Shown one piece after another: positions 28,240-29,498 of a DNA stretch of 64,000 nt (the stretch's first letter is position 1; each line of letters starts with the position of its first letter). A model generated the notes under the pieces. That model was not told where the DNA came from, made no database searches, and saw nothing but the letters and a program-made list of their open reading frames with translations. The DNA is taken from sequence record OR844650. One strand, written 5' to 3'. The position numbers and the translations under genes are program-made. The stretch comes from Escherichia phage ECO103 4-12-1.

Positions 28240-28592
28240 TCTTGAATTCCTAAATTGAATTTGTATTCTTGATTAATACTTGCATTGGGTTTATGCAAAG
28301 CAGCATACTCTTTCATTTCATTTTGTATTGCAATAACTTCTTCAAATGTACACAAGTACTTCTTATCAAATACTAATGATTCTTGGAATAGTTCTGCGGT
28401 ATCCATTAATGTATAGTCCGGCATATCTTGGTGTGGATACTGTAATGAACTGTAATCAATGAATGTAAATTTACCCTGAGTGTAATGAATATACTCATTT
28501 GCACTGTGCATTAAATCACCTTTGTTTAAATTACAAAAGTACTGATAACTGTGCTTGAAAGTATGTACTGATATTAAAAAATCAAATTCCAT
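28236..28592 (-). CDS. family A paralog, subfamily A2
   Basis: ORF 118 aa; motif TAELFQESLVFDKKYLCTFEEV. Confidence 0.6.
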   Translation of the reverse strand: MEFDFLISVHTFKHSYQYFCNLNKGDLMHSANEYIHYTQGKFTFIDYSSLQYPHQDMPDYTLMDTAELFQESLVFDKKYLCTFEEVIAIQNEMKEYAALHKPNASINQEYKFNLGIQE

Positions 28593-28963
28593 CAGTACTC
28601 AACCTCTACATAAATAGATTCAGGAAACTTAGTCATATAATCTTCTGGATAGTTCTGCATTACTTTGATCATTTCTGCCTGTGTAGCACGGACGTATTCA
28701 ATTGGTGCTCCTGGTAAATTCCAGACAGTACTTTCCTGAAAGAATTCCTCTTCTGACAGTACTGTCAGATTTACAAAATCATTACGGTAATTTTTTGAAT
28801 CATCATATGTGAAGATTTTAAAAGACCCATTTTCATATAGTACAAGAACAAAATGGGAGAATTTTTGTAATGCACCACCAAGGCTTTCCACGACCGCATG
28901 ATTCAGTGTACAGATGACCTCTCTTTTCCTCATACCGAATTGAATTCTAATTTCTTTTTTCAT
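28592..28963 (-). CDS. family A paralog
   Basis: ORF 123 aa; motif EEEFFQESTVW. Confidence 0.6.
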   Translation of the reverse strand: MKKEIRIQFGMRKREVICTLNHAVVESLGGALQKFSHFVLVLYENGSFKIFTYDDSKNYRNDFVNLTVLSEEEFFQESTVWNLPGAPIEYVRATQAEMIKVMQNYPEDYMTKFPESIYVEVEY

Positions 28964-29121
28964 AAAATCTCCTTCAGATTAGTACTGAATTTGTACAGAA
29001 TATTAGAACTGTATACAGCCTCTGTATCTGTATCCATAATCAAATCACCTTTGTTTAAATTACAAAAGTACTGATAACTGTGCTTAAAAGAATGTACTGA
29101 TATTAAAAAATCAAATTCCAT
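28960..29121 (-). pseudogene. truncated N-terminal fragment of a subfamily A2 gene (53-aa ORF; may still be expressed)
   Basis: About 90 bp at 29030-29123 nearly identical to 28505-28592; encodes MEFDFLISVHSFKHSYQYFCNLNKGDL then diverges; ATGA overlaps at both ends. Confidence 0.45.
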
Positions 29122-29498
29122 CACACTTCCCCTAGATTGAAATGATTACAAAAATTATCTTCACCAGTACTGCACCAGATATCTATACATTCCCTGTGAA
29201 TACATTTAATTCTACGCTGTAATTCAATCATCTCTTCTAATGTACAGATGTACTTCTTATCAAATACTAATGCCTCCTGAAACAGTGCAGCATCATCAAG
29301 TACTGTATAGTCCAACATCTCGGTTGCTTTACCCCTAAACCCAGTACTAAAATCCATCAAATAAAAGTCAGCATTCCAGTACTTTAAAATCTTGTCCCTG
29401 GCGTAGTTTAAATCACCCTTGTATAAGTTAGAGTGCGTAACTAACTCACCAGTGTACATCCATGTCCTTGCACAAAATTCATTATATTTTATTTCCAT
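29121..29498 (-). CDS. family A paralog, subfamily A2
   Basis: ORF to 29606; likely start MEIKYNEF at 29498; motif DAALFQEALVFDKKYICTLEEMI. Confidence 0.55.
   Translation of the reverse strand: MEIKYNEFCARTWMYTGELVTHSNLYKGDLNYARDKILKYWNADFYLMDFSTGFRGKATEMLDYTVLDDAALFQEALVFDKKYICTLEEMIELQRRIKCIHRECIDIWCSTGEDNFCNHFNLGEV

Follow-up and report, generated by a model that had tools for sequence, protein, structure and literature searches.

A probable chimeric gene remnant whose borrowed start brackets a recombining one-gene cassette in an Asteriusvirus paralogue array

Introduction

How does a phage come to carry the beginning of one of its genes a second time, at the head of a much shorter reading frame? 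This question is raised by a locus in a stretch of 64,000 nucleotides (nt) of Escherichia phage ECO103 4-12-1 (sequence record OR844650), the whole of which is referred to here as the window. The locus contains an open reading frame (ORF) of 53 amino acids (aa) whose first 27 codons copy the start of gene A, a full-length gene of 118 aa lying a short distance downstream. The local genes are all encoded on the minus strand, packed into an array in which the stop codon of one overlaps the start codon of the next, and are transcribed in the order gene X, the 53-aa ORF, gene Y, gene A and gene B. A sequence-only reading of this DNA had proposed that the ORF is a duplication remnant, which copies the N-terminus of A, diverges to a stop and may still be translated.

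The window belongs to an Asteriusvirus, a 121Q/PBECO4-like jumbo myovirus (coliphage) of about 350 kb. Around the ORF it shares 99.6% identity with Escherichia phage vB_EcoM_phAPEC6 and 99.3% with BF17, G17 and SHEFM2K, all of them Asteriusviruses. We found no paper that describes this locus; papers on Asteriusvirus treat paralogues and tandem duplication only in general terms. As set out below, we conclude, with a probability of about 0.8, that the 53-aa ORF is a chimeric gene remnant and that the A-type gene start, by being repeated, brackets a recombining one-gene cassette.

Results

A near-identical gene start occurs twice

Repeat search and pairwise alignment identified a direct repeat of 85 nt with a spacing of 529 nt, the upstream copy being called R1 and the downstream copy R2 (Table 1). 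The two copies are identical at 82 of 85 positions (96%), with mismatches at positions 30, 35 and 80 from the ATG. The repeat begins 2 nt ahead of the ATG, thus taking in part of the stop codon of the upstream gene, and its identity ends abruptly after ..GGTGATTT(A/G)AT, at 28510 in one copy and 29039 in the other. A pattern search allowing up to three mismatches returned exactly two matches, R1 and R2, as compared with 0.00 expected in 100 dinucleotide shuffles. Since the other paralogues of the array share only 70-85% identity, and over conserved cores only, the 96% block stands well above the family background. The repeat that had been noticed from the letters is therefore real, although its limits, placed at 28505-28592 and 29030-29123, were a few bases off; the shared peptide, MEFDFLISVH[S/T]FKHSYQYFCNLNKGDL, had been read correctly. 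Over 28 aa the ORF matches the start of gene A at 93%. It is 53 aa long from the ATG at 29121 and would be 54 aa long from a GTG one codon upstream.

The remainder of the ORF derives from a different gene

The 26 codons that follow the copied start do not simply run on to a stop, as had been supposed. They correspond to the C-terminal end of a different gene, which we call Z. In phage A4, the gene preceding Y is not a short ORF but the full-length, 192-aa A4_364, and the tail is homologous to residues ~146-192 of this protein, i.e. to its C-terminal 47 codons (tblastn E = 3e-13). The tails of 121Q and A4 are identical at 133 of 151 nt (88%). These matches indicate that the ORF is a hybrid of A-type and Z-type sequences joined in frame. 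The C-terminus of A4_364 reads ..DVAFQQDLIMDVDSAATYSSNVLCKEFQNSKILELLYIADCNILYKFCTHLKEIL, the 74-aa product gp366 of 121Q reads MEFDFLISVHTVKGAPQYLCNLNKGDLIMDTDTEVVYSSNVLCKEFQNSKMLELLCIADCNILYKFSTNLKEIL and the 53-aa ORF of the window reads MEFDFLISVHSFKHSYQYFCNLNKGDLIMDTDTEAVYSSNILYKFSTNLKEIL.

The joint falls on GATTTGAT, an 8-nt microhomology of the two parents. There, the A-type parent reads ..GGTGATTT(A/G)ATGCAC, A4_364 reads ..CAGGATTTGATTATGGAT and the fusion reads ..GGTGATTTGATTATGGAT; over a longer span, the A-type, Z-type and hybrid sequences are ..AAAGGTGATTT(A/G)ATGCAC, ..CAACAGGATTTGATTATGGAT and ..AAAGGTGATTTGATTATGGAT, respectively. As a result, ..NKGDL stands where Z has its own ..AFQQDL, and the tryptic peptide GDLIMDTDTEAVYSSNILYK, which spans the junction, is unique to the fusion. 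The same GATTTGAT joint was found in eight of nine fusion carriers and in two metagenome contigs. R1 was read in 121Q, CRJP21, BF17, phAPEC6, G17, slurp01, Turkey3 and Sharanji (whose record starts inside R1), and not in SHEFM2K, the cassette and flanks of which match at 99.3-99.8%. The identity of the joint in the carriers read points to one ancestral fusion event.

The form found in the window is shorter than the 74-aa version kept by 121Q by a further 63 nt, lost in frame between the imperfect direct repeats TAATGTTCTGTGCAA and TAATATTCTGTACAA. These 63 nt are present in both A4_364 and 121Q, which makes the long form the ancestral one and gives the order of sizes as 192, 74 and then 53 aa. 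CRJP21, in which a 121Q-type N-terminal patch is combined with the short tail, is an intermediate. These comparisons, which are comparisons of sequences, demonstrate the chimeric ancestry of the ORF, its shared junction and the order in which its sizes arose.

Z has no PHROG match. It has a distant full-length paralogue in the window, a 200-aa ORF at 22440-23042 (minus strand; 24% identity over 191 aa), which indicates that Z represents a real type of gene in these phages. This 200-aa ORF is followed by a 120-aa gene of a small family (22072-22434, minus strand), an arrangement that echoes the Z-then-Y order of A4; the pair at 22072-23042 may be an old duplication of a two-gene module.

The hybrid frame is open from ATG to stop in all nine carriers and in the two metagenome contigs. 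It is thus truncated yet intact, rather than disrupted like a classical pseudogene, and each of its two parts has its homologue within a longer gene that is intact, as expected of a fusion relic. The exact ORF sequence always occurs between X and Y, followed by A wherever the contig extends that far, and it has been annotated as a coding sequence in phAPEC6 (gp446c), BF17, CRJP21, slurp01 and Turkey3. When the small minus-strand ORFs of the window were compared with the large ones by blastp, only this remnant was recovered at high identity, so that the window does not support a systematic mechanism for making such remnants.

Table 1. Positions of the repeat, the hybrid ORF and the surrounding genes in the window.
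Feature	Position	Strand	Description
R1, upstream repeat copy	29039-29123	minus	last 2 nt of the X stop codon plus ORF codons 1-27
R2, downstream repeat copy	28510-28594	minus	genuine 5' end of gene A
Chimeric 53-aa ORF	28960-29121	minus	MEFDFLISVHSFKHSYQYFCNLNKGDL / IMDTDTEAVYSSNILYKFSTNLKEIL
Fusion junction GATTTGAT	29039-29046	minus	8-nt microhomology of the A-type and Z-type parents
Z-derived tail	28960-29038	minus	remnant of an A4_364-like C-terminus, including the stop codon that overlaps the ATG of Y
Deletion scar TAAT	29002-29005	minus	63-nt in-frame deletion relative to 121Q and A4
Shine-Dalgarno AAGGAG of Y	28969-28974	minus	5 nt before the ATG of Y, inside the last codons of the ORF
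Presence/absence unit (R1, Z tail and Y)	28595-29123	minus	529 bp; exactly absent in PBECO4-type genomes
Gene X	29121-29498	minus	125 aa, PHROG 15629
Gene Y	28592-28963	minus	123 aa, PHROG 13866; accessory gene of the cassette
Gene A	28236-28592	minus	118 aa, PHROG 15629; full-length owner of the repeated 5' end
Gene B	27880-28239	minus	119 aa, PHROG 15629

The unit bracketed by the repeats is present or absent as a whole

Gene Y was found, along with the sequence immediately upstream, in only ten distinct phage genomes, once in each. Among 35 related records, 11 (10 distinct genomes) have the cassette and 24 lack it. The fusion ORF is present in nine of the ten distinct cassette genomes, A4 having the cassette with full-length Z. 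In about 20 distinct non-carrier genomes X is followed immediately by A, with precisely these 529 bp absent; JNE01, Turkey5 and EJP2, also without the cassette, have diverged arrays.

Three flank backgrounds provided pairs of a carrier and a non-carrier whose flanks are nearly identical: Turkey3 with fEgEco12 (99.0% on the left, 100% on the right), slurp01 with SP27 (98.8% and 98.9%), and the window, phAPEC6 and BF17 with PBECO4 and E9.1 (97.8-99.7%, the lowest value being that of BF17 and PBECO4 on the left). The most informative carrier was Turkey3. Its flanks differ from those of the window by ~13-16%, whereas the 562 nt from position 47 of R1 to position 79 of R2 contain a single mismatch, which places both recombination junctions inside the 85-nt repeats. 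Both lie between repeat positions 47 and 80, within the block CAGTACTTTTGTAATTTAAACAAAGGTGATTT, which is the same in every Asteriusvirus allele of this X-A locus; in the diverged JNE01 allele, agreement with it ends at ..GGTGAT. Such a pattern is expected if a cassette-less backbone took up the unit through the 5' end of its single gene A, its only homology to the unit. Uptake could have proceeded through two crossovers, gap repair or the single-crossover integration of an excised repeat-plus-gene circle. These data demonstrate a presence/absence polymorphism of the unit with junctions inside the repeats.

The markers that distinguish R1 from R2 were also informative in the non-carriers. The single copy of PBECO4 is R1-type at positions 30 and 35 and R2-type at position 80, and that of SP27 is R2-type throughout, which implies that crossovers took place at different points and in more than one event. 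Furthermore, the R1 allele follows that of gene A in cassette-less phages, being of PBECO4 type in the window group and of fEgEco12/EcMJ type in Turkey3. Since R1 carries different A alleles in different carriers, it appears to have been overwritten repeatedly by recombination with cassette-less phages.

Within the A-type start, codons ~16-27 (..QYFCNLNKGD..) are identical in DNA across the Asteriusvirus X-A alleles, with JNE01 one base off near the end. The A alleles also contain a hypervariable patch, which spans the turn of the N-terminal hairpin and its second strand (codons 11-18; 28538-28562 in the window, 29067-29091 in the remnant), with the variants HTFKHSYQYF, HSFKNSFQYF, HTFKGTHQYF and HSFKLQRQYF. 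The DNA blocks on either side of it vary little or not at all across Asteriusvirus. This patch may reflect diversifying selection on the loop.

The remnant retains only the first hairpin of the predicted family fold

Genes X, A and B match positions 1-121 of the PHROG 15629 profile (~121 positions), whereas the 53-aa ORF covers positions 1-39 only (E = 1.2e-9), as does the 74-aa form of 121Q (E = 2.7e-6). The likeness of the ORF to these Rak2-like small proteins (PHROG 15629/13866) thus lies in residues 1-27 to 1-39, which match the N-terminus of the profile including CNLNKGD, an instance of the N-terminal block C-N-L-x-K-G-D. The family core, D-Y-T-x-[LM]-D-x-x-E-L-F-Q-E-[SA]-L-V-F-D, in which F69, Q70 and V74 are invariant in the alignment, is absent from the ORF, which therefore lacks the near-invariant ELFQESLVFD. 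With ~80 of the 121 profile positions missing, the ORF counts as a fragment of PHROG 15629 rather than as a member.

An AlphaFold2 model of gene A (predicted local distance difference test score 84.9) shows a sheet of five to six strands and two helices, and residues 1-27 make up only the first beta-hairpin of this predicted fold. The model matched no solved structure, and in BFVD it matched only uncharacterised Rak2-like phage proteins. A search of 1.84 billion proteins with the family profile retrieved only 65 small unannotated clusters. As the remnant keeps only the first predicted hairpin, a function of the peptide is unlikely, and the 53-aa product is most likely a functionless by-product.

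The start context of the remnant would allow translation

The 3' end of gene X provides the ribosome-binding context of gene A in the cassette-less phages and that of the 53-aa ORF in the window. This context (X 3' end, AGGGGAAG and TGATG) is essentially identical in the window ORF and in gene A of PBECO4 and other cassette-less phages. If gene A is translated in the latter, the remnant should be translated here. It also overlaps its neighbours. The sequence-only reading had described ATGA-type overlaps on both sides; the ORF does overlap both genes, through ATGA (4 nt) with Y, but its overlap with X is TGATG (1 nt). The same styles recur downstream, as TGATG between Y and A and ATGA between A and B. 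The ORF thus has the stop/start overlaps typical of translationally coupled genes, and its use of gene A's own start context, together with its overlap with the start of Y, makes translation plausible. Judged from this context, it is probably translated as a by-product.

The Shine-Dalgarno sequence of Y is conserved in A4, 121Q and the window, and its position in the last codons of the ORF accounts for the conservation of the extreme tail. A search for promoters and terminators inside the unit gave matches at chance level, with none in the repeat on the coding strand, so that X, the remnant, Y and A are probably carried on one transcript. We considered the possibility that the cassette is a 'moron' with an internal promoter or terminator, and rejected it because such signals occur only at chance level. 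An RNA element at the locus was likewise rejected, since no Rfam family matched and RNA folding was not unusual (z = -0.71).

The purine run AGGGGAAG before the stop codon of X (~29121-29135 in the window) differs in length among relatives. UE-S1 (L016, gene-strand positions 2003-2731) has an extra A in it, and X and A are annotated as a single 242-aa fusion protein; TH47 (L014, gene-strand positions 1893-2387; record flagged UNVERIFIED) lacks one G, which shifts the end of X. These variants are either natural X::A fusions or homopolymer sequencing errors.

Other features of the array

The window is AT-rich (G+C 30-40%). PHROG 13866, to which Y belongs, is related to PHROG 15629, and both are of unknown function; the closest paralogue of Y is ~28% identical to it. 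Pfam gave no match for X, A, B, Y or the 53-aa ORF. At least 25 minus-strand ORFs of 103-207 aa between 9600 and 38900 share the motif E-E-x-[FY]-F-Q-x-[SA]-[LT]-[VIL]-[YFWH] and form one large paralogous superfamily, which extends over PHROGs 15629, 13866, 9317, 12674 and 30243 and has no Pfam match. Gene X has been named 'amidohydrolase 3' in phAPEC6 (gp447c; L001, 2822-3199). Here, it is an ordinary PHROG 15629 member without a Pfam match above threshold, and the name looks spurious.

Downstream of B, the 164-aa gene of the window (27376-27870) is replaced in Turkey3, EcMJ, fEgEco12, TH47 and ph0011 by a 114-aa PHROG 15629-like gene and an unrelated 61-aa gene, which is another module swap in the same array. 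A second, unrelated array occupies 39700-44700 on the minus strand and comprises about 12 paralogous small ORFs (66-104 aa) that are 21-35% identical to the one at 43326-43640; the DNA repeats at 41628-42417 and 43848-44143 are part of it.

Discussion

The observations can be accommodated by the following pathway, which is inferred from the present-day sequences. Z would be the gene natively preceding Y, still of full length in A4. Illegitimate in-frame recombination at GATTTGAT would have joined A-type codons 1-27 to the last ~47 codons of Z, to give the 74-aa ORF that 121Q has. The later loss of 63 nt, again in frame and between short imperfect repeats, would have produced the 53-aa form of the window. 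Retention of the A-type 5' end would have left two 85-nt direct repeats around the Z tail and Y, and homologous recombination within them would delete the 529-bp unit and generate genomes of the PBECO4, SP27 and fEgEco12 types. The same repeats would let the unit enter, or be swapped between, diverged Asteriusvirus backbones such as that of Turkey3, and recombination would overwrite the 5' end of the remnant with the partner's allele of gene A.

Several points weigh against this interpretation. The ancestral arrangement that it calls for, either a genome with the order Z-Y-A or one with an additional A' paralogue ahead of Z, occurs in none of the collections searched. A protein database search with the 74-aa form returned only 121Q gp366, the 53-aa cluster and A-type proteins, with no homologue outside the locus; in IMG/VR, both the Z query and a 34-mer across the joint between the Z tail and Y matched 121Q only; the JGI metagenomes gave no match with Y or with the exact 34-mer; and a search of the GTDB genomes for the ancestral arrangement or further Z genes gave none either. 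Each individual presence/absence event may have been a loss or a gain of the unit. In 121Q and CRJP21, 12 differences are concentrated in 27 nt at the 5' end of the remnant (HTVKGAPQYL), a patch that has no counterpart elsewhere in the phage collection; it amounts to 6 amino-acid changes in 9 codons, which also vary among genuine A alleles. The frame has stayed open through two rearrangements, with no stop or frameshift in any carrier, which would also fit selection on the peptide; two in-frame events would occur by chance in about one case in nine, and the carriers are nearly identical in the tail, so that the power of this argument is low. Finally, translation of the ORF and its coupling are predictions from the sequence context.

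We also considered other explanations of the same facts. The simplest is the one first proposed, a partial tandem duplication of the first ~85 nt of A, the rest of the ORF being unrelated filler that happens to reach a stop. The two copies are indeed 96% identical, 529 nt apart and on the same strand, and the ORF is, as that proposal held, a remnant of less than full length with an open frame. Yet in DNA the supposed filler is 88% identical to the 3' end of the full-length A4_364, whose frame and stop codon it preserves, the version in 121Q is longer and more Z-like, and a whole unrelated gene, Y, lies between the copies. This explanation is therefore very improbable, and the ORF is better described as a two-parent fusion relic that was later cut by the 63-nt deletion. 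We regard it as improbable, too, that the 53-aa or 74-aa product is a functional micro-protein under selection, for instance a free hairpin that modulates A-family proteins or an adaptor acting with Y. Such a role would agree with a frame that has survived the fusion and the deletion and is intact in all nine carriers and both metagenome contigs, with the usable start context and with a ratio of nonsynonymous to synonymous differences (pN/pS) of 0.40 in the tail, a value that rests on the small count of ~18 substitutions between 121Q and A4, acquired partly before the fusion, the short-form tails being identical in all carriers. However, the ORF is gone, together with Y, from most relatives with otherwise near-identical flanks; it lacks the only near-invariant motif of the family and, of the predicted fold, everything beyond the first hairpin; different A alleles freely replace its N-terminal part, with the changes noted above in 121Q and CRJP21; half of its tail could be deleted; and it has no homologue outside this locus.

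A selected role that is compatible with a fusion relic, and would be added to it, is that the ORF is kept open only for translational coupling or anti-polarity, irrespective of the peptide, by helping to deliver ribosomes to Y. The TGATG and ATGA overlaps, which follow the same style as the rest of the array, the probable single transcript of X, remnant, Y and A, with no promoter or terminator above chance in the unit, and the in-frame character of both rearrangements are in keeping with this idea. On the other hand, Y has a strong ribosome-binding site of its own (AAGGAG with 5-nt spacing) from which initiation could occur independently, the local RNA has no structure that would need unwinding, and chance alone, at about one in nine, would suffice for the two in-frame events. 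Coupling is therefore a tentative possibility, and the likeliest of the alternatives. A last explanation, that the cassette is an autonomous mobile element of the homing-endonuclease or transposon kind and that the 85-nt repeat is its target-site duplication, takes account of the sharp borders of the unit, of the direct repeats at its flanks and of its presence or absence among close relatives. It is scarcely credible: neither Y nor the remnant contains a nuclease, integrase or transposase domain, or indeed any Pfam match; Y is one ordinary paralogue among those of the local family; a conserved gene 5' end of 85 nt is unlike the target duplications that such elements make; the Turkey3 junctions lie at variable positions within homologous sequence, as in homologous recombination; and there is no structured RNA or DNA element at the locus.

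The interpretation that we favour, that of a fusion relic flanking a cassette exchanged through its repeats, has parallels in known systems. In T4-type phages, PeSLs, each consisting of an intergenic sigma-70-like promoter and a stem-loop terminator, flank small accessory genes as direct repeats, which leads to deletion, insertion, replacement and mini-circles, and an excised repeat-plus-gene circle can reintegrate by one crossover (Arbiol et al., 2010, PMC2839356; Comeau et al., 2014, PMC4122927). The present locus resembles them in that repeats flank a small non-essential gene in a variable region, with presence or absence among close relatives and junctions in the repeats. A circle integrating by one crossover would put both junctions at the same repeat position, which the Turkey3 data allow (47-80). 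In contrast to PeSLs, the repeat is here a coding sequence, made of 27 codons of a paralogue and a stop/start overlap, without promoter, terminator or stable hairpin, and the locus is therefore not a PeSL. One may speculate that the conserved 5' block of these paralogues is a portable recombination site, a coding analogue of PeSLs or integron attC sites through which single array genes are excised as repeat-plus-gene circles and reinserted into other genomes, duplicated starts like that of this ORF being the footprint of this process, but we consider this unlikely.

Elsewhere in the window, between 45800 and 64000, there are about 21 copies of an intergenic repeat of ~100 nt (e.g. at 46686-46731, 48192-48288, 56325-56421 and 60803-60899), which is not found at this locus. 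On the coding (minus) strand it comprises a TTGCAA/TTGACA-like -35 box, a spacer of ~17 nt, a GTATAAT -10 box and a G+C-rich hairpin (for example GGGGAGAATAGTTCTCCCC) immediately ahead of the following gene. In appearance it is an early promoter and stem-loop cassette in many copies, reminiscent of T4-type PeSLs.

Tailed phages are mosaics in which joints arise by illegitimate recombination at microhomologies and in which accessory genes of the 'moron' type are inserted. This picture is reportedly due to Hendrix and colleagues, to Juhala et al. in 2000 and to Pedulla et al. in 2003. The locus conforms to it in having a novel joint at a few shared bases (GATTTGAT), other module borders that coincide with gene borders and an accessory gene in a subset of relatives. 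It differs in that the joint lies inside two genes and leaves an open, in-frame hybrid ORF instead of a clean gene boundary, and in that Y, unlike a moron, belongs to the resident paralogue family and is not of foreign origin with a promoter and terminator of its own. The 'genomic accordions' of poxviruses, in which tandem paralogues are said to expand and contract by unequal recombination (as attributed to Elde et al., 2012), share with this locus a tandem paralogue array where recombination between similar segments alters gene content and leaves hybrid genes. Here, there is no selected copy-number amplification of one gene, only a single fusion relic and a one-gene insertion/deletion. According to the work of Hua et al., as it is cited in the paper on phAPEC6 (PMC7247149), tandem duplication has been proposed as a route to genome growth in jumbo phages, and the array context fits that view.

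The locus is an ordinary but clear example of known processes of phage mosaic evolution, and it represents neither a new kind of element nor a new mechanism or function. It records the remodelling of a jumbo-phage paralogue array, in which a 192-aa gene would have become a 74-aa hybrid through a microhomology fusion and then a 53-aa ORF through an in-frame deletion, and in which the borrowed gene start of the relic would act as a homology arm through which an accessory gene is lost, gained and moved between backbones that differ by ~15%. For annotation, it means that the 'hypothetical proteins' phAPEC6 gp446c (53 aa) and 121Q gp366 (74 aa) are probably fusion relics and not independent genes. 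For the biology of these phages, whose variable genes are uncharacterised, it provides a concrete and testable case of cassette exchange through coding repeats.

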